64,000 bases of DNA. It comes from an uncultured Candidatus Saccharibacteria bacterium. Its GTDB lineage: Bacteria > Patescibacteriota > Minisyncoccia > Phycocordibacterales > UBA918. A model generated the notes under the pieces. The model worked only from the letters and a program-made list of their open reading frames with translations. It made no database searches and had not been told where the DNA came from. The stretch's first letter is position 1, and each line of letters starts with the position of its first letter. This document shows positions 2,095 through 54,188 of this stretch, piece by piece. Where the stretch lies: assembly GCA_964350735.1 (NCBI GenBank), contig CAYGKO010000004.1, positions 19,583 to 83,582 of the forward strand, in the 5' to 3' direction. Position numbers and translations under genes: made by a program.

Positions 2095-4008
2095 TTATTT
2101 AGTCGTAAATTCAAATACCCCACTCCAGTCGGTCGGTGGATTTTTCTGCAGATCAATCGCCCGTCCTAGGAACACTTTACTCGGACCATCCTCCGGATCA
2201 ATCTCTAATGCAGCTTTAAATGACTGCTCTGCTTTTAGAAAATCGCCGGCCAGGTACGAGACTCTGCCGGCAGCAAAATGCGCCAAGACTTTTTCTACTT
2301 CAGGAGTCAGGTCGGTAGTGATAAGTTCATAAATACGACGTGGTTCTTTTTTCCCTTTTACCATTACATCATCAAGTTCCCGCGTATGGAGATGTGAAAT
2401 ATCTTTAATCTCATAAAAGGTTTTTTCGCCAATCAAACAAAATACTCCGTATTGCTTGGTCAGTCCTTCGATTCGGGCTGAGAAGTTCACTTCGTCGCCA
2501 ATGATCGAATAATTAAACCGGCGTTTAGAACCCATGTTACCTACCACCACGTCACCCGTACTGACGCCAACACCAATGCCAAACGGTGGGCGGCCTTCGG
2601 CCGCCCACCGTACATTAAGCTTCTGTAGCGACTGCATCATCACCACCACACTCTCACACGCTAACTGCGCGTGGTTTTTCATCTGCAGTGGTGCTCCCCA
2701 AAACGCCATCACTGCATCTCCAATATATTTATCTACCAAACCCTGCTTTTGCATCACCGCCTCGGACATTTCTTCTAAATATTCATTAAGTTGTGTCATC
2801 AATTCTTGCGGCGTGAGCTGTTCTGACAGAGTAGTAAACCCCCGAATATCAGAAAACAAAATGGACAGCTCGCGCGTTTCCCCACCAAGCGCCAACTTAC
2901 CTGGATTCTTCTGTAATTCATCTACTACTTCACTAGCTACGTAATGTTCGAATCCTTTTCGAATGAATTCCTTCTCTTTGCTTTCATACACAAACTGCAG
3001 CAAGAGGAGTGCGCCTGTTAGCAACAAAAACAAAATCAACTCATATAAATGAGGTACTAAAATACCAAAAGAAAATGCGATGTAGGCATCTAAGATAATC
3101 CCGAAAAAGACTACTGCCAGCAAGATGTACAAATTGCGCGCTGTTTTGATTCTAGTAACAATAAGTAAAATCAAAAGCGCTAGAATGACAAACACCAGCA
3201 AGGAACCAGCTGGGTGTAATGGCTCAAGGTAATTCTCTGACCATATTGTATTGATGGCGTTAGCATGCACCTCAACTCCTGGCATTACTCCAAATGGCGT
3301 CTGGAAGGTGTCACCGAGTCCTGCCGCACTGGCTCCTACCAACACAGTTTTGTCTCTGAATAATTCTTTTGGTAGCGTGCCCTTAAGCACATCTACGTAT
3401 GAGAGTGTGGTATAGGTAGTGGCTGGACCTGCAAAGTAGATACGAGTATTTTGAGGGACTGATTCAGTAGATTGAACCGCCGCGACGGTACTCTCGAAGC
3501 TCAAGGTCCCGTCCCGATACAATTCAGCCCGGCGCACAACACCATCACGGTCAGTAGCCGTATTCACAAAACCAGTTTGAGCGGCCTGATCTAAAATCTG
3601 AATTGGTTGTATAACTGTATTGCTTTGTTCGTCGATGACACCTGCCAACACCACTTCACCATCAAACGCTACAATCGAACGCGCTAAATTATTATCGTCT
3701 TCGGCTCCTAAAGATGATGGTTCAGTAAAAAGCACATCGAAACCAACCATTCGGGCTGATCCAATCGCATCCAGCAGCTGGCCGTGAATACTGCGACTCC
3801 AGGGCCACTGACCGATCGCTGCAAGACTTACCTCGTCAATATCAATTATCACGATGTCACTTGAAGGCTCAGACGGCGCAAAGAATCGGTCAGTAAGCTG
3901 AGCTTCAAGTGTATCGAACACACCAAAGTAAAAACTCAGACCAACAACACTCGTCACAACTATCGTGACGAAATACAAAGCTCTAGTGCGAGTGAAGAAT
4001 GTAGACAT
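2095..4008 (-). CDS. CHASE2 sensor domain adenylate/guanylate cyclase (class III nucleotidyl cyclase) with a C-terminal TPR-like tail
   Basis: 637 aa. The N-terminal TM is followed by an extracytoplasmic CHASE2-like region (VIIDIDEVSL...GQWPWSRS) and a multi-TM block. The class III cyclase core is visible (FSDIRGFTTLSE, GIGVGVSTGDVVVGNMGS, NFSARIE). Confidence 0.8.
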   Translation of the reverse strand: MSTFFTRTRALYFVTIVVTSVVGLSFYFGVFDTLEAQLTDRFFAPSEPSSDIVIIDIDEVSLAAIGQWPWSRSIHGQLLDAIGSARMVGFDVLFTEPSSLGAEDDNNLARSIVAFDGEVVLAGVIDEQSNTVIQPIQILDQAAQTGFVNTATDRDGVVRRAELYRDGTLSFESTVAAVQSTESVPQNTRIYFAGPATTYTTLSYVDVLKGTLPKELFRDKTVLVGASAAGLGDTFQTPFGVMPGVEVHANAINTIWSENYLEPLHPAGSLLVFVILALLILLIVTRIKTARNLYILLAVVFFGIILDAYIAFSFGILVPHLYELILFLLLTGALLLLQFVYESKEKEFIRKGFEHYVASEVVDELQKNPGKLALGGETRELSILFSDIRGFTTLSEQLTPQELMTQLNEYLEEMSEAVMQKQGLVDKYIGDAVMAFWGAPLQMKNHAQLACESVVVMMQSLQKLNVRWAAEGRPPFGIGVGVSTGDVVVGNMGSKRRFNYSIIGDEVNFSARIEGLTKQYGVFCLIGEKTFYEIKDISHLHTRELDDVMVKGKKEPRRIYELITTDLTPEVEKVLAHFAAGRVSYLAGDFLKAEQSFKAALEIDPEDGPSKVFLGRAIDLQKNPPTDWSGVFEFTTK

Positions 4009-4010
4009 GC

Positions 4011-5333
4011 TTATGGTGTTGCAGTATCACTCTCTCCCGCTCCTGATACAGTTATAGTAAGTACCTCTTGCAAGAACGTATCGAAGATATGCAATTCAGT
4101 CGGACTAAAGAGTCCCCAGTCAAATGGCGGTTCGTTATCCACCAAAATTGTATCAACAATATCCATACCTGGGCCACGTACAATCACAAATTCCATACTA
4201 TCAGCAAAACCACTAGTGATCTCTTCAATCTTAAGTACTACCAACTCTTCCTCCTCTTCTAACACCACTTCAAACGCTCCCTTGAGTTCAAACGATTCAT
4301 CACCAGCAAAGAGCTCTATGTCATAGACCTCATCCTTTTCTGGTAGTTCATACGACCCAATAATCAAGATATCATCTCGCGTCACTTCGAACTCAACATC
4401 ACTACCATTAAGCGTTACCCGGTCTACCATTTCAAAGCCTGATCCACTGACTATCACCCTATCTTCAAGTCGAGGATCAAAGCGAACTGGATCAACTTCA
4501 TCGATACTAAGAACGAGCTCTTCGGGTTCTGGCTCAACTTCTGGAGTGGTCGTTGGAGTAATCTCTGGTTCTGGTTCTGGTTCCACCACAGGTACCACTA
4601 GGGCGGGTGGGATAACAACTGCTGGCGGATCGATCTCAATCATCTCAACCGGCTTCACTGTTGTTTCCGGATTATTTTCCACATACCAGTCATCCCGGTC
4701 TAACGGCTTTGTTTCCCTCACCGTAAAAACCTCTCCATTATCTTCAAGCGTACTCCCTGCCGATACAAACACTTCTGTCCCCGGCTTCGTTTCACCAGTA
4801 ACTGGATCGCGTTGCTGCGCTCGGACGGTTCCTTCGGTTACTACCAAGCTTTTAGTCGGATCGAGACTGACACCAAACGACGTCCCACGAACTGCCGCTA
4901 CCATGGTTGGCGTGTACACTTCGTAGACCTCGTCTTGTTCGAGTGCCCGTTCAATTTTGGTCCACGTCTTCCCCGCCGTGAGTTCAATCCTAGTCTGCTT
5001 TTTATCGGGACTAAGCGCTAGCTTGATTTCAGAGTTACTATCAAGTGATGTGATGATCTCCAGGTCGTTAGCAATCACTGCCCGCCCTTCAGTTGAGGTC
5101 CGTACCCCCGCTCCATCTTCCACTTCACTCACCGCACTGATCACCTTCCAAGCCTCGGGATCAAGCAAGCTCGTCATCTCAACGTCCGCAGACAGCGGAG
5201 TAAGAATCGCTCGCTCAGTCGCTTCAACCACTGTCGCTGGATCAGCTAGCTTTTCTTCTGACACGCCTTGATACCAGTACCCAGCCGCCGCTATCACCAC
5301 GAGAATCCCCCCAAGAATATATACGTTTTTCAT
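4011..5333 (-). CDS. FecR-domain secreted protein with a Pro/Glu-rich linker
   Basis: 440 aa with a signal or anchor at the N-terminus. It carries the FecR-like motif VYTPTMVAAVRGTSFGV and a PEPEPE-rich low-complexity linker. It is a paralog of the adjacent gene 5336-6253. Confidence 0.55.
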   Translation of the reverse strand: MKNVYILGGILVVIAAAGYWYQGVSEEKLADPATVVEATERAILTPLSADVEMTSLLDPEAWKVISAVSEVEDGAGVRTSTEGRAVIANDLEIITSLDSNSEIKLALSPDKKQTRIELTAGKTWTKIERALEQDEVYEVYTPTMVAAVRGTSFGVSLDPTKSLVVTEGTVRAQQRDPVTGETKPGTEVFVSAGSTLEDNGEVFTVRETKPLDRDDWYVENNPETTVKPVEMIEIDPPAVVIPPALVVPVVEPEPEPEITPTTTPEVEPEPEELVLSIDEVDPVRFDPRLEDRVIVSGSGFEMVDRVTLNGSDVEFEVTRDDILIIGSYELPEKDEVYDIELFAGDESFELKGAFEVVLEEEEELVVLKIEEITSGFADSMEFVIVRGPGMDIVDTILVDNEPPFDWGLFSPTELHIFDTFLQEVLTITVSGAGESDTATP

Positions 5334-5335
5334 AT

Positions 5336-6253
5336 CTAAAATAGCAAATTATCCATTACCGCTTGTCGATCACCAAAGAAAACTTCTTGCGGTAATACTG
5401 TTTTATCTCCTAAGTATATAACAACCTCACTATCTTCGCTGATCTTGGTAGCGATATACCACGGTACTCGCAGCTCAGTATCAGACACCGGTACAAATGG
5501 CATCAACTCACCATCAATTTCGACTTTTCTGAGCTGATTAAACCCTGTGCCAACCACGGTAAGTTGGCCAGGATTTTGAAACCAGAATCCTTCTCGGTGA
5601 GCGGTAATCAGCTCAAACTGTTCACTGCCACCATACTGCCAATCTGCAGCCATGTGCTCAGCGTACCAGACATCTTTTTCAGCTTCGGTAATTGGCCGCA
5701 CCAAGATACTCCCTTCGACCATCTCAGCTACCGCACCGGCTGCTACTGATATACCACTCTCTTCACCACGTATTCGAACCTCCACCACCCCCTCGCCCAC
5801 CACAAACTTCTCTTCCTCATCAGACACATACGTTCCAAAAGACGTCCCTCGCACCGCCGCTACCATGGTTGGAGTGTATACCTCATAGACTTCGTCTTGC
5901 TCGAGGGCGCGCTCGATCCGCGACCACACCTTTCCTGCTGTTACATCTAAAGCTGAAGTTTTCTCAGTATCAGTAAATGTAAGAGTGGTGTTTTCAGCAA
6001 TTGAGCTGATTAGCTGCTCACTACTCTTAATCAGCGCCCGTCCAGTAGCGTCAGTCCCCACCACGTCACCGTCCCCAACAGGAACTTCTCCCGTCACCGA
6101 ATCATTGTTTTTACTCACTATATTCCCAAGCGTCAACAACACAGCTGGTTCATAACGCACCGAATTCTCCAGCACTGTATCCGCATCAGCCACCAACCAG
6201 TAAAACCCCACTCCACTGACCAACACCACAGAGAAACCAAGAAGGTATTTCAT
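5336..6253 (-). CDS. FecR-domain secreted protein, tandem paralog of the neighbouring gene
   Basis: 305 aa. It shares the block KVWSRIERALEQDEVYEVYTPTMVAAVRGTSFG with the neighbouring gene, and about 90 bp are near-identical at nucleotide level (about 4870-4960 versus 5820-5910). Confidence 0.55.
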   Translation of the reverse strand: MKYLLGFSVVLVSGVGFYWLVADADTVLENSVRYEPAVLLTLGNIVSKNNDSVTGEVPVGDGDVVGTDATGRALIKSSEQLISSIAENTTLTFTDTEKTSALDVTAGKVWSRIERALEQDEVYEVYTPTMVAAVRGTSFGTYVSDEEEKFVVGEGVVEVRIRGEESGISVAAGAVAEMVEGSILVRPITEAEKDVWYAEHMAADWQYGGSEQFELITAHREGFWFQNPGQLTVVGTGFNQLRKVEIDGELMPFVPVSDTELRVPWYIATKISEDSEVVIYLGDKTVLPQEVFFGDRQAVMDNLLF

Positions 6254-6295
6254 ATACTAGTAATAGTGCCTGTAAATCATTATTTGCACAAGACA

Positions 6296-6326
6296 AATAC
6301 TACAAACCGCCAGCTGATGCTGGCGG
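6296..6326 (-). terminator. Rho-independent terminator for the acidic protein gene
   Basis: The hairpin aaaccgccag-ctgatg-ctggcggttt is followed by a T-rich run on the minus strand. Confidence 0.4.
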
Positions 6327-6357
6327 TTTGTGTACAATCAACTTATTCAGACCAACT

Positions 6358-7650
6358 CTAGATAGTTCGCATTTCTAGCATTAGAAGTAACGCCTTAATG
6401 AGTTCTATCAGCTGATTCCGCATTGCATCAGTATCACTTTCCACTTCTACGGCTGCAGGTTTGGTTTTTAAGTACTCGCTGTATGTAGGAACTGAGTCAG
6501 TAGCATACGTATTATCGAACTCAATCTCCTCTGCAATATCTTGATAGGTGATCACGCCAGTAATTCGCAGCTGAGTGCGGTTATTCAACTGATCAGTAAT
6601 TTCTTCGATCAAATACCCTTTCCAGAGGCCGCTATCAATTTTATATGCCGTAGTCTGGTATGAGTACTCACAGTCATCGAGATATTCTACAGTCACCAAA
6701 TCTTTTGAAAAAGCGCCATTAGATTTCACCTGCACACGAGTTATATCTCTAGAAGAAAATTCTTCACATCGTTCTAACTTATCGAGATCCGATATAATCT
6801 GTTCCAGCTCGCTGCCATAGTCTGTAAAATTTACATCTATATCTGCAATAGCTTCTATATCATCTTCGTTATATGAACCACCAATACCGTAAGTATCCTG
6901 CATTTCATCAAGTAACGCTTCTAGGTAATTATCAAGGTTTGAATTACCTTGATAACGAAGAGTTATGTAGACAGGGACACTCTCAACTCCAAAATCAATC
7001 AAAGTGGCGATATAGCCATCTTTATCACCAGCTTGGATGGTGATATCTTCAATCTTTGAAAATGTCAGACCGTCACGATCAGCTGCATATCCATCATTGG
7101 ATGGTGAGCCAATGGTACTAAAATCTACATCGACTTTCTCTCTTGCATCTTCTGCGTCTTCTCCAGTCCTGCGACCCAAATCTGCGTACACATCATCTTT
7201 GTCTGTAGTGTCCCAGATTTGGTAGTAACCCTCACGACCATCAGTGTATTCCAACTCCATATCAATCCGGTCTTCTGGGTAATTGATAGTAGCAAATGCT
7301 TCAGCAATAATTACAGAACGAAACTCTGTCACATCTTCAAGGTCATCACCGCCAAAATTACCACGCATCATATAGGCGCTTTGCAGGTGTTCAGCAATAT
7401 CATTGAGCACCTCATCTTCATCGTCTTCGTCGCCAACAAAACCGTCAAAATCTAACTCCTCATCTTCATCTTCAATTTTAACTTCCACCTCAATTTCATT
7501 ATTGTAACCGTACACAACGTTAATGTACTCAATATCATTTTCATCGTAATCTGAATAATCCTCGGCTGCTAAAGCTGGGCCTAAAGAAAATCCGAACATT
7601 AATAACGCTCCTAAAACTATAATCTGAAACTTTGAAATTATTGAACCCAT
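6358..7650 (-). CDS. Highly acidic (Asp/Glu-rich) secreted protein
   Basis: 430 aa with a signal peptide (IIVLGALLMFGFSLGPALAAED) and long runs of D and E (EDEDEELDFDGFVGDEDDEDE). No enzymatic motif was recognised. Confidence 0.45.
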   Translation of the reverse strand: MGSIISKFQIIVLGALLMFGFSLGPALAAEDYSDYDENDIEYINVVYGYNNEIEVEVKIEDEDEELDFDGFVGDEDDEDEVLNDIAEHLQSAYMMRGNFGGDDLEDVTEFRSVIIAEAFATINYPEDRIDMELEYTDGREGYYQIWDTTDKDDVYADLGRRTGEDAEDAREKVDVDFSTIGSPSNDGYAADRDGLTFSKIEDITIQAGDKDGYIATLIDFGVESVPVYITLRYQGNSNLDNYLEALLDEMQDTYGIGGSYNEDDIEAIADIDVNFTDYGSELEQIISDLDKLERCEEFSSRDITRVQVKSNGAFSKDLVTVEYLDDCEYSYQTTAYKIDSGLWKGYLIEEITDQLNNRTQLRITGVITYQDIAEEIEFDNTYATDSVPTYSEYLKTKPAAVEVESDTDAMRNQLIELIKALLLMLEMRTI

Positions 7651-7797
7651 ATTTTCTACTTAATGTATAAACTCACGCTAATGTTGTGTCCAAACGCACT
7701 ATTCCCTACCCATATCCTATTCACCATACATAACATCTTGATAAACTTCAAGATCAGTATTTGTATACCCCCATAGGTGCGGTATCATGACTGCCAC

Positions 7798-7882
7798 GGA
7801 GAGATGGCTGAGTGGTTTAAGGCGCACGCTTGGAAAGTGTGTAGGGAGCAATCCCTCGCAGGTTCGAATCCTGTTCTCTCCG
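7798..7882 (+). tRNA. tRNA-Ser (anticodon GGA), type II with a long variable arm
   Basis: A manual cloverleaf gives acceptor GGAGAGA/TCTCTCC, anticodon stem CACGC/GTGTG and loop TTGGAAA (anticodon GGA). The variable arm is 17 nt and the T-loop is GGTTCGAATCC. No CCA is encoded. Confidence 0.85.
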
Positions 7883-7893
7883 CAAAATTAAGT

Positions 7894-23969: not shown

Positions 23970-25994
23970 ATGAACGAACGTACAACAAACAATGGAGCTG
24001 GACAGTCTACAAACCCAAGTGGACCAGCCCGACCACGAACTGGCGGACAACACCGAAGTCGCCCTGGTGGACGACCAAATAGTCGACCCGGTGGACGTCC
24101 TGGAGGGAGTGGACAAGGAGCCAACCGCCCACAAGGTGGCCGACCCAACCGCAATGGTGCCGGAGGAGGTGGTAACCGAAATGGCGGTGGCCGACCAGGT
24201 GGTGGTGGCAAACGTCGAGGTAACAATCAAAACCGGCGTCGCTCAATGACGAATCCGGCTCTTTCTCACCGCATGGCGGAACGTGATGAAAAATCTCCGG
24301 TACTGCCCGAAGTGACTGACGAAGATACCGTACGAGTGATCCCGATGTCTGGTGTGGAACAAATCGGACGAAATATGACGGTGGTTGAAACTAAAGACGA
24401 TATCATTATCTTTGATATTGGTTTTCAGTTTGTATCAGCTGACTCACACGCTCCTGGCGTAAACTACATTCTGCCAAACACGCAGTACCTAGAAGAACGA
24501 AAGCATAAGATTCGTGCGCTCGTGATCACTCATGGTCACCTCGACCACATTGGAGGTATTCCATTTGTTATGGAACGAATTGGCAATCCACCAATCTACA
24601 CGCAATACCTCACCTCTTTAATGGTGAAGAAACGACAAGAAGAGTTCCCTCATATGGACCCACTTGATATCAATGTGATCAAAGAGGGTGATTCTTTCAT
24701 GGTAAAGAATACCAAGATCAAGACTTTCCCCGTCACTCACTCTATTCCTGATGCAATGGGAGTGTGCGTCGAGACCAAGCATGGCGACGTAGTTATCACT
24801 GGAGACATCAAACTTACACACGAAGATGGTGAAGTAGTAAAAGAAGAACGTGAATCATGGGAAGGAGTTGGCAAGAACAACAACCTCGTCATGATGTGTG
24901 ACTCAACCAACGCCGACCGTGAAGGCTTCTCAGCGCCAGAAAGTACAGTATTCGAAAGCCTTGATAACATCATCAAAAATGCCACTGGCCGGATGATCAT
25001 TGGTACCTTTGCTTCACAGTTTGATCGACTAATTGCTATCATTGGATCTTGTGAAAAATATGGCAAAGTAGTCGTACCCGAAGGACGTAGTATTAAAGTA
25101 AGTATCGATATTGCAATAACAGCAAAGATGCTTGAAGTAAAACCTGGTGTGATTGTGTCTGCCCAAGAAGCCGACAACTATCCAGCTGATCGGGTAGTAA
25201 TTCTTTCAACTGGTGCTCAAGGTGAAGAGTTTGCCGCCTTGATGCGAATGGCGTGTGATAAACACAAGTTTATTACCCTCAGCGAACGAGACACACTCGT
25301 GCTCTCATCTTCAGTGATCCCGGGGAACGAGATCGCCGTGCAGAAATTAAAAGATAATATCTACCGGAAGAATGTACGAGTGATCAACTATCGATCTGCC
25401 TCAGTTCACTCTTCTGGACACGGAAACGCTGGTGAACTTAACTGGGTACGACAAACCGTCAAGCCTAAATTCCTTGTACCAGTACATGGTCATCACTACC
25501 ACCTCAAGAGTCACATGTATACAGCGGTAGAAAATGGCTTCCCTCGTGAAAACATTGCTATCCCTGACAATGGAACTTTAATCGACATCAAAAACGGAAC
25601 CGAAATGATTGTCCATAAACAAAAAGCTCCGACTGAGGAGATCTATGTCGATGGCTTCACTGTTGGCGCGCGACAAGAAGTAGTGCTTCGTGACCGCCTC
25701 TCACTTTCAAGTGACGGTATGTTTGTGATTATTGCGACCGTAAACACCAAGACCGGTAAGTTGCGTAAGTCACCAGACATCATCTCTCGTGGCTTTGTCT
25801 ACCTACGTGAAAATCAGCAACTACTCTCTGAAGCCCGCGTCCTCATCAAGAAAACGGTTGAAAAAAATACAGAGAATATGCACCCAATCGACCTCGACCT
25901 CGTGAAAGACGAACTGACAGATACAGTGAGCGGATTCCTGATGCAGAAGACCCAGAAAACACCAATGGTGATTCCAGTTTTGATTGGAATATAA
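23970..25994 (+). CDS. rnj: Ribonuclease J with an N-terminal Arg/Gly/Pro/Asn-rich disordered extension
   Basis: 674 aa. It has the metallo-beta-lactamase motif HGHLDHIGG and the beta-CASP and RNase J C-terminal regions. About the first 110 aa are low complexity (RPGGRPNSRPGGRPGGSGQG..). Confidence 0.9.
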   Translation: MNERTTNNGAGQSTNPSGPARPRTGGQHRSRPGGRPNSRPGGRPGGSGQGANRPQGGRPNRNGAGGGGNRNGGGRPGGGGKRRGNNQNRRRSMTNPALSHRMAERDEKSPVLPEVTDEDTVRVIPMSGVEQIGRNMTVVETKDDIIIFDIGFQFVSADSHAPGVNYILPNTQYLEERKHKIRALVITHGHLDHIGGIPFVMERIGNPPIYTQYLTSLMVKKRQEEFPHMDPLDINVIKEGDSFMVKNTKIKTFPVTHSIPDAMGVCVETKHGDVVITGDIKLTHEDGEVVKEERESWEGVGKNNNLVMMCDSTNADREGFSAPESTVFESLDNIIKNATGRMIIGTFASQFDRLIAIIGSCEKYGKVVVPEGRSIKVSIDIAITAKMLEVKPGVIVSAQEADNYPADRVVILSTGAQGEEFAALMRMACDKHKFITLSERDTLVLSSSVIPGNEIAVQKLKDNIYRKNVRVINYRSASVHSSGHGNAGELNWVRQTVKPKFLVPVHGHHYHLKSHMYTAVENGFPRENIAIPDNGTLIDIKNGTEMIVHKQKAPTEEIYVDGFTVGARQEVVLRDRLSLSSDGMFVIIATVNTKTGKLRKSPDIISRGFVYLRENQQLLSEARVLIKKTVEKNTENMHPIDLDLVKDELTDTVSGFLMQKTQKTPMVIPVLIGI

Positions 25995-28731: not shown

Positions 28732-28750
28732 TGCACTAGTATAGAGATTT

Positions 28751-29235
28751 ATACATCAAAAGGAAATGGCTGACTCGATCAGAGATCGTGTCAGCCATCG
28801 ACAGTTGCTATGTCGGATTAGCTAGTTCCGACACCTACGAGCAGTCAACCCGTAGTTCAGCCGTGCTCGGGCCGAATAAAATTAAGTACAGGCTTCTGTT
28901 GCCAGGCGCCTGCGGACCCCGCCTTAAGCTGCGAAGCCTAAGGACTTAAGGCATTACGCCCGACCAACGAGGCCGTGCGCTCCACCCAGATTGGCTGCCA
29001 TCCACGCGGGAACCGCGTCATGACCGCCATCGCTTTTAGCACGAGTGCCATTTGCGAAAAGTGAACCGATAACGGTGGTGTCTCACCGAACAAAAGCTAA
29101 CTCCTTTAGACGTCCGTCGATCCTATTTCGACCCCTGCATCCAAACGTTCGGGTGTTTGGTGGAGCCGCCGGGTACCGCCCCCGGGTCCGATCCGTTTAT
29201 TGCGAGCGCGTTTATTGCCATAGATCCCTAGAGAT
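28751..29235 (-). ncRNA. ssrA: Candidate circularly permuted (two-piece) tmRNA gene (ssrA) with its terminator
   Basis: Read 5'->3' on the minus strand, a T-arm-like CCGGG-GGCGGUA-CCCGG is followed by the acceptor 3' strand CGGCUCC-ACCA (+29158-29166). A 22-nt spacer follows, then GGGGUCG-AAAUA-GGAUCGACGG (+29135 downward), which resembles the tmRNA 5' end. GGGGUCG and CGGCUCC form 7 pairs including G3.U. An ORF-like frame starting GCA AAU lies 81 nt in. A terminator hairpin occupies 28768-28796. Confidence 0.5.
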
Positions 29236-29271
29236 CAGTTTCATCCTAGTATTAAAATAATTGAAAGTCAA
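29236..29271 (-). promoter_or_regulatory. Putative sigma70-like promoter for the tmRNA precursor
   Basis: On the minus strand, TTGACT is followed by a 17-nt spacer and TAGGAT, immediately after the stop of the HAD-hydrolase gene. The predicted start would give an acceptor piece of about 78 nt. Confidence 0.3.
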
Positions 29272-54107: not shown

Positions 54108-54117
54108 ATGCTAACAG

Positions 54118-54188
54118 CTGCCCGACAGGGATTCGAACCCCAGTTGACGGTACCAGAAACCGCAGTCCTACCACTAGACGATCGGGCA
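54118..54188 (-). tRNA. tRNA-Gln (anticodon CUG), 71 nt
   Basis: A manual fold gives acceptor TGCCCGA/TCGGGCA, D-arm GTCT-AGTGGTA-GGAC, anticodon stem GCGGT/ACCGT with loop TTCTGGT, and T-arm TGGGG-TTCGAAT-CCCTG. G37 is unusual and there are two G.U pairs in the T-stem. Confidence 0.6.

Follow-up and report, generated by a model that had tools for sequence, protein, structure and literature searches.

How does a gene for a two-piece transfer-messenger RNA (tmRNA) of the alphaproteobacterial type come to lie among the genes of a patescibacterium, and how much of it can still work there? The question is raised by positions 28751-29271 of a 64,000-nucleotide stretch of contig CAYGKO010000004.1 (assembly GCA_964350735.1), deposited under an uncultured Candidatus Saccharibacteria bacterium; the whole stretch is hereinafter designated the window, and coordinates refer to it unless another locus is named. 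tmRNA is usually seen as vertically inherited, and circularly permuted tmRNA genes are regarded as markers of three bacterial lineages and of mitochondria. A preliminary description, made from the letters alone, had proposed a permuted two-piece tmRNA gene at this position, in a gap of about 480 bp read as non-coding. The present analysis supports that proposal: the locus is very probably a complete circularly permuted ssrA gene of the alphaproteobacterial (two-piece) type that was acquired horizontally.

The identification rests on covariance-model matches obtained with Rfam cmscan. Window 29275-28885 (minus strand) is a full-length match to the alpha_tmRNA model RF01849 (223.9 bits, E = 1.5e-63, model positions 1-355 of 355; the curated gathering threshold is 50 bits), and the family tmRNA_permuted (RF04321) also matches the locus, at 107.8 bits (E = 4.5e-20). 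These scores and E values place the locus far beyond chance, and a permissive-threshold Rfam scan of the locus returns no family besides these two. A covariance-model check with the standard and permuted tmRNA families had been proposed in the preliminary description, and it comes out significant for the two families named here, with the full-length RF01849 match confirming the permuted two-piece assignment. The match runs through the permuted gene order, from the acceptor piece through the CCA end and the intervening sequence to the coding piece: CCA at 29160-29158 is followed by a 22-nt spacer and then by the GGGG start at 29135. The features of the locus, in the order of transcription, are as follows.

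29243-29271, minus strand: sigma-70-like promoter, with the -35 element TTGACT at 29271-29266, a 17-nt spacer and the -10 element TAGGAT at 29248-29243.
29223-29236, minus strand: 5' leader hairpin of the acceptor piece, with 5 of 5 pairs canonical.
29158-29219, minus strand: acceptor piece, comprising the 3' strands of P2, the T-arm, the acceptor strand and CCA, as placed by the covariance model and by identity to the consensus.
29185-29169, minus strand: T-arm with the loop GGCGGUA, from the covariance-model structure.
29168-29158, minus strand: 3' acceptor strand CGGCUCC (29168-29162), discriminator A (29161) and CCA (29160-29158), from the sequence and the covariance model.
29136-29157, minus strand: intervening sequence of 22 nt, seen in the sequence and corresponding to the variable loop region of the covariance model.
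29089-29135, minus strand: 5' end of the coding piece, with the acceptor strand GGGGUCG (29135-29129), the D-loop analogue AAAUAGGAUCGAC and the 5' strands of P2.
29128-29114, minus strand: AAAUA (29128-29124) followed by GGAUCGACGG (29123-29114), read from the sequence.
29063-29088, minus strand: pseudoknot 1 (PK1) region CGGUGAGACACCACCGUUAUCGGUUC, with 17 of 19 highly conserved positions kept; the pseudoknot pairs lie outside the covariance model.
29053-29062, minus strand: frame-setting and resume region, with A29062-CUU, UUC at 29058-56 and the ancestral resume codon GCA at 29055-53.
28954-29055, minus strand: tag reading frame ANGTRAKSDGGHDAVPAWMAANLGGAHGLVGRA, 33 codons plus UAA (28956-54), from the covariance-model alignment and the comparison with homologues.
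28875-28952, minus strand: conserved 3' block of the alpha-type coding piece, with its end hairpin at 28913-28888 and a U-rich tail at 28884-28875.
28810-28876, minus strand: three extra hairpins, predicted by folding (z = -4.2 for the whole 3' region).
28758-28799, minus strand: intrinsic terminator, a hairpin with 15-nt arms (28798-28766) and a UCU loop, followed by UUCCUUUU; the fold extends the hairpin to 28799-28765.

When the consensus structure is mapped onto the window, 33 of 35 pairs are canonical. All seven acceptor-stem pairs form, including the G3.U70 wobble (G29133.U29164), beside the discriminator A29161 and an encoded CCA; the T-stem forms in full (5/5); and the P2 helices keep 16 of 18 canonical pairs, with departures from the alpha consensus that are compensatory on both strands. 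In the preliminary description the T-loop GGCGGUA was considered atypical and the main weakness of the call; it is actually the consensus of the alpha family, and the D-loop analogue GAAAUAGGAUCGACG matches that consensus as well. Across 92 alpha-type genes, our comparison set for the structural core, the acceptor piece equals the consensus at every position that is at least 97% conserved. A single-sequence minimum-free-energy fold of the acceptor piece plus spacer does not recover the tRNA-like fold (z = +0.85), and the covariance-model structure is used instead. As far as sequence can establish it, the tRNA-like half possesses every feature for alanylation and for processing by the universal tRNA enzymes. 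Much of this layout had already been read correctly on the minus strand: the acceptor strand CGGCUCC-A-CCA, the 22-nt spacer (29157-29136) leading into GGGGUCG AAAUA GGAUCGACGG (29135-29114), the seven acceptor pairs with their G3.U wobble, the promoter TTGACT-17-TAGGAT and the strong rho-independent terminator are all found where the features above place them.

The two ends of the locus differ in their likeness to known genes. The promoter starts directly after the stop codon of the HAD-hydrolase gene (29274-29272) and can be aligned to positions 1-39 of the alpha_tmRNA model, a promoter-like leader from which it differs at 4 of 10 conserved positions. At the 3' side, the U-rich tail 28884-28875 occupies the ancestral terminator position, where alpha genes have a T-run. 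The hairpins at 28876-28810 show no homology to alpha-type genes, to the junctions of relatives or to any Rfam family, and may represent donor flank, host sequence or part of the RNA. The strong terminator, which sits 27 nt before the start codon of the PspC-domain gene, has no homology to anything retrieved, and the terminator at the corresponding place in the close relative L167 is a different one.

The flanking genes identify the host. With the RNase J core of the window as query, 43 loci of named genomes are recovered at 73-83% identity, almost all of which bear the label Kaiserbacteria, Paceibacteria, Parcubacteria or Patescibacteria, and tblastn finds the gene order GroEL-GroES-...-RNase J-MFS-(HIT-like)-MutY-like-PspC on one side and HAD-g29957-bactofilin-like on the other conserved in about 30 relatives. 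This two-sided conservation of gene order indicates that the host is an ultra-small, Kaiserbacteria-like bacterium of the Candidate Phyla Radiation (CPR)/Patescibacteria. The preliminary remark that the genome does not look like that of an alphaproteobacterium, a betaproteobacterium or a cyanobacterium agrees with this placement, as RNase J and its neighbours share both 73-83% identity and gene order with metagenome-assembled genomes (MAGs) of Kaiserbacteria, Paceibacteria and Parcubacteria.

No tmRNA of any type is detected in the 43 relatives' loci by blastn, ARAGORN or Rfam, nor in the two closest relatives, which were retrieved via homologues of the adjacent HAD gene: L167, with RNase J 94.5% and MFS 94% identical to those of the window, and L166, with HAD 88% identical. 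In both of them HAD is immediately followed by a sensor-kinase gene, which in L167 lies within a 5-kb block before PspC; in most relatives the PspC-HAD gap measures 11-160 bp. The block in the L167 junction (2617-7800) is a two-component cluster of sensor kinase, GAF, methyltransferase and response-regulator genes, and L166 (1808-2182) contains at least the kinase, while the same junction holds an XRE-like helix-turn-helix open reading frame (ORF) in L008 (14964-15463) and L032 (3738-4257) and an ORF of about 129 aa in L024 (8180-8570). These differing contents across relatives mark the HAD-PspC junction (window 28732-29271) as a variable insertion spot. In the window, the C-terminus of HAD is intact and conserved and the foreign DNA begins right after its stop codon; a search for flanking direct or inverted repeats that would mark an integration yields short chance matches only. 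Because about 30 syntenic relatives, including one with approximately 94% identical RNase J, are without a tmRNA at this place, the comparison establishes, at the level of sequence, that the gene is foreign to the host lineage and a lineage-specific horizontal acquisition.

Homology to the alpha genes extends from the -35 box to the U-rich tail past the last family hairpin, at about 28875. Outside the tag, the window gene falls within the diversity of the 92 alpha-type genes (mean identity 0.83 vs. a median of 0.846), and its nearest neighbour among the compared genes is 89.7% identical; the donor lineage is not closely sampled. The nearest genes found are tmRNAs of the roseobacter (Rhodobacterales) type (for instance L176 and the metagenomic L108, L110 and L174), 86-90% identical over the tRNA-like domain, PK1 and the 3' block. 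One of them, from the roseobacter Tateyamaria omphalii (GCA_014651375.1, L176), is 86% identical to the window's tmRNA and encodes the tag ANDNRAPVAMAA. These roseobacter-type tmRNAs share with the window the same U5.G acceptor variant and homologous first six tag codons (ANDNRA vs. ANGTRA); unlike the window gene, they encode canonical tags (ANDNRAPVAMAA, ANDNKAPMALAA), are detected by ARAGORN, score 289-300 bits and stand in proteobacterial contexts, in one case beside the adaptor gene SspB. A metagenome scan for the U5.G acceptor variant recovers at least 120 alpha-type genes, mostly marine, with ANDNRAPMAMAA, ANDNKAPMALAA and ANDNRAPVALAA among the tags of the matches listed; none of these at least 120 listed matches has window-like flanks or a long tag.

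A 71-aa ORF runs antisense to the gene (29045-29260, plus strand) and overlaps the tRNA-like domain. An exact database look-up of this ORF returns no record, and a look-up by cluster yields no names of organisms. Used as a protein probe, it finds 27 similar spurious ORFs, the best of which (L174) has proteobacterial neighbours that include fumarase and the ClpX adaptor SspB. In T. omphalii, among others, alpha-type tmRNA genes are overlain by equivalent spurious ORFs that were deposited as hypothetical proteins, and such ORFs offer a way to locate tmRNA genes through protein databases. Scans of viral contigs return six with generic alpha-type matches, none of which is the window variant: the IMG/VR contigs L168, L171 and L173 contain a near-complete alpha-type permuted tmRNA whose tRNA-like domain and 3' block are 81-85% identical to those of the window, and L169, L170 and L172 contain partial alpha-type matches. 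The viral matches may be prophage ends at ssrA or phage-borne tmRNA, and either could be a vehicle of transfer.

An alphaproteobacterial gene between patescibacterial neighbours might be an alphaproteobacterial tmRNA stitched into, or binned with, a patescibacterial contig, and the authors of the 2025 tmRNA database do flag cross-phylum cases as possible misbinning (PMC11915505). The locus is also present in an independent Logan assembly of the run ERR3534985, as two contigs (L165 and L001) that end inside the gene at about 29167 and 29187, with an overlap of about 20 nt in the T-arm/acceptor region that is identical in alpha-type tmRNAs. A break inside the gene would fit such an artefact. It was likely caused by k-mers common with alphaproteobacterial tmRNA genes in the sample; as a more general observation, short-read assemblies may systematically fragment horizontally shared RNA genes. 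L165 links the promoter and the P2 strands to HAD, and L001 carries PspC and MutY together with the spacer, the coding piece and the unique tag. Since each contig joins variant-specific tmRNA sequence to patescibacterial genes, leaving only the approximately 20 nt of conserved T-arm ambiguous, a chimera would need two independent misjoins. Moreover, 28 kb and 35 kb of contiguous sequence separate the gene from the two ends of the window, which makes binning irrelevant, both flanks are syntenic with Kaiserbacteria relatives, and no alpha gene among the matches listed has the window's tag or P2 strands. On the two-contig linkage and the two-sided synteny we reject a chimeric join or misbinning, and give an artefact of assembly or binning very little credence. 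It is likewise highly improbable that the permutation is ancestral to, or arose independently within, Patescibacteria, with no transfer from Alphaproteobacteria. The 15 Patescibacteria genomes listed as 'permuted (alpha)' in the tmRNA database could form a clade, but the alpha likeness of the window gene reaches the promoter leader, the T-loop, PK1 and the 3' block, at 86-90% identity and within alpha-type diversity; the gene is absent from the syntenic site in 45 relatives, one of them with about 94% identical RNase J; and the first six tag codons are homologous to ANDNRA. We reject an independent fourth permutation in favour of the arrival of an alpha-type gene by horizontal transfer.

The message half of the horizontally acquired gene has been remodelled. 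The frame that opens with GCA AAU at 29055, exactly 80 nt past the first G, reaches UAA after 33 codons (28956-28954), in agreement with the distance of about 80 nt and the 33 codons counted in the preliminary description. That description held that the correct tag could not be fixed; homology does fix its frame. The first six codons, GCA AAU GGC ACU CGU GCU (ANGTRA), align with the alpha codons GCA AAY GAC AAY CGU GCU (ANDNRA), and the family stop codon has its counterpart in the UAA at 28956. Relative to the alpha model, the tag frame carries a 66-nt in-frame insertion after these six codons and a 3-nt deletion just before the homologous UAA. In the covariance-model alignment the length changes of the translated part (+3, +66 and -3 nt) are all multiples of three, weakly suggesting that the frame has been kept. 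A second in-frame stop, noted earlier as lying nine codons downstream after ..GFAA, is indeed present at 28926-24. As the true tag end, however, ..GFAA is rejected: an in-frame UAA precedes it, it belongs to the conserved 3' structural block, and its likeness to a tag end is a coincidence. Upstream of the tag, the motif C-A-CUU is kept (A29062), displaced one codon upstream of its ancestral position and followed by UUC and GCA. The A of A29062-CUU stands at the frame-setting position -4 if UUC (29058-56) is the resume codon, and not if GCA is; with A29062 as the ruler, UUC would be the first codon translated, which would move the resume point one codon upstream and leave the frame unchanged.

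A number of observations weigh against a complete and working gene of the alpha type, and many of them fall in this message half. Compared with a set of 86 alpha-type genes used for tag features, the window tag is 33 aa long and ends in GRA, vs. 12-14 aa ending in [LMVI]AA in 86/86; the base at -4 from GCA is U, vs. A in 86/86, with the nearest A 7 nt before GCA; the bases at -2/-1 are UC, vs. UU in 86/86; and the spacer measures 59 nt, vs. 62-66 nt. In Escherichia coli tmRNA, A86, located 4 nt before the resume codon, is the main frame-setting determinant and a pyrimidine there abolishes activity, while U85C is tolerated and the distance from PK1 to U85 is not critical (PMC2481249). A second frame is also open across the tag region, so the open 33-codon frame alone proves little. 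The conserved model positions that differ number 11/24 in the resume context and tag, 7/41 in the 3' block, 2/19 in PK1 and 1/78 in the tRNA-like domain, indicating that the departures are concentrated in the mRNA-like module (1/78 vs. 11/24, Fisher p = 1e-5). ARAGORN, run on the whole window and on the sub-region, makes no tmRNA call at the locus, the only one of the checks proposed beforehand to fail. The program finds a permuted tmRNA with a canonical tag in 5/5 alpha-type homologues, so the miss is specific to the window gene, and the remodelled tag and shifted frame-setting context are probably behind it. The covariance-model score lies about 70 bits below those of the alpha homologues, and the -10 element has drifted (TAGGAT vs. 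the family TATATT). No second patescibacterial copy was found, and as a singleton the gene offers no evidence of covariation or purifying selection within the host lineage. SmpB was not found in the 64-kb window or the retrieved loci with an approximate E. coli SmpB query.

Many of these points fit a non-functional relic, an alpha-type ssrA picked up by chance that is decaying or was never used, with a native one-piece tmRNA doing the work: the gene is a singleton that the closest relatives lack, its resume context, tag length and C-terminus violate family invariants, its -10 element is weakened, ARAGORN misses it, its score is reduced, and a native copy is likely, given that 5,252 of 6,765 Patescibacteria genomes have a standard tmRNA (PMC11915505). 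Neutral decay, however, should hit all parts alike, which is not the pattern seen between the tRNA-like domain and the tag module; 33 of 35 pairs are intact; and the indels of the translated part preserve the frame together with the homologous stop codon. If the gene had arrived very recently, its tRNA-like half could be intact for that reason as well, but the donor would then have had to supply the remodelled tag. We regard the relic as possible but rather unlikely, and consider it probable that the locus is a horizontally acquired alpha-type permuted tmRNA with a present-day function of at least its tRNA-like rescue half. In several bacteria the release of ribosomes is a more essential activity of tmRNA than tagging, so that a foreign tmRNA with a drifting or re-adapted tag could still be useful.

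For such a working gene we infer transcription, two-piece processing, charging and SmpB-dependent rescue, with a tag that lacks an Ala-Ala end, along the following lines. An alpha-type ssrA would have landed in the variable HAD-hydrolase/PspC junction of a Kaiserbacteria-like patescibacterium, where its own promoter, or read-through out of the HAD gene, would provide the transcript. RNase P would cut before G29135 and 3' trimming would proceed to the encoded CCA at 29158, removing the 22-nt spacer and leaving two pieces held together by the acceptor stem and the P2 helices. The G3.U pair would lead to charging by alanyl-tRNA synthetase, and the charged RNA would enter stalled ribosomes with SmpB and EF-Tu. 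Translation would then resume at UUC (29058) or GCA (29055) and add a tag of 33-34 residues ending in ...LVGRA. A bolder extension, which we hold to be speculative and doubtful, is that a CPR bacterium domesticated an alphaproteobacterial two-piece tmRNA, possibly taken from its own host, that this RNA replaced the native one-piece form, and that the tag was rewired to about 34 residues with a non-canonical C-terminus suiting the bacterium's own proteases.

The prototype of the two-piece tmRNA is that of Caulobacter crescentus (Keiler, Shapiro & Williams 2000, as cited in PMC4383926). With the alpha family (RF01849) the window gene has in common the gene order, the T-loop GGCGGUA, the D-loop analogue, P2, the PK1 sequence, the 3' block and the promoter-like leader. 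It differs in that its host is a patescibacterium and not an alphaproteobacterium, and in its tag, which has 33-34 codons ending in GRA instead of 12-14 ending in (L/M/V/I)AA and contains the 66-nt insertion; the frame-setting A is displaced by 3 nt, the spacer from PK1 to the resume codon is 6 nt shorter, and three extra 3' hairpins are present. Permuted tmRNAs have been described in Alphaproteobacteria, some Betaproteobacteria, some Cyanobacteria and mitochondria (PMC11915505). The 15 Patescibacteria entries classed as 'permuted (alpha)' in the 2025 database are counted without comment in its Supplementary Table S2 (PMC11915505); they share RNA type and host phylum with the window, and only the window gene is shown in patescibacterial synteny. 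The MAG containing the window may itself be one of the 15, and in the literature searched we found no paper discussing a patescibacterial permuted tmRNA. A possible functional analogy is offered by the mitochondrial permuted tmRNAs of jakobids and oomycetes (RF02544) and by entries listed as 'permuted, no CDS', which keep the tRNA-like domain while tag coding is reduced or lost (PMC11915505). In contrast to the mitochondrial RNAs, the window gene keeps an open, homologous tag frame with its stop codon, and it matches the alpha model and not the mitochondrial one.

Some further observations concern the window and its relatives more widely. In RNase J, the conserved metallo-beta-lactamase core is preceded by an N-terminal low-complexity extension (23970-24251) that is about 95 residues long and has a high content of Gly, Arg, Pro and Asn. 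The window also encodes tRNA-Ser(GGA) at 7798-7883 and tRNA-Gln(CTG) at 54117-54188, and the position of the former is conserved in many relatives' loci. L002, L004, L026 and about 12 loci named 'uncultured Candidatus Saccharibacteria' show the Kaiserbacteria-type gene order with RNase J at about 80% identity; the names under which these contigs are deposited are Acidimicrobiales, Patiriisocius sp., Candidatus Azotimanducaceae and Saccharibacteria, which probably reflects mislabelling or misbinning of MAG contigs.

The locus is thus a well-supported member of the alpha-type tmRNA family in an unexpected host, with a variant message module. As an alpha-type gene physically embedded in patescibacterial synteny, it is a clean counter-example to misbinning as the reason for cross-phylum permuted tmRNA, and implies that at least some of the cross-phylum 'discrepancies' in the database are real horizontal transfers. 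Genes of this kind are missed by ARAGORN-based annotation. The pristine tRNA-like domain beside a remodelled tag module constitutes a natural experiment on which half of a tmRNA a foreign cell must keep, and the roseobacter-like donor gives a hint as to which organism the uncultured episymbiont lives with. If the domestication were true, it would be the first demonstrated functional replacement of tmRNA across phyla and a molecular clue to the host of the symbiont.

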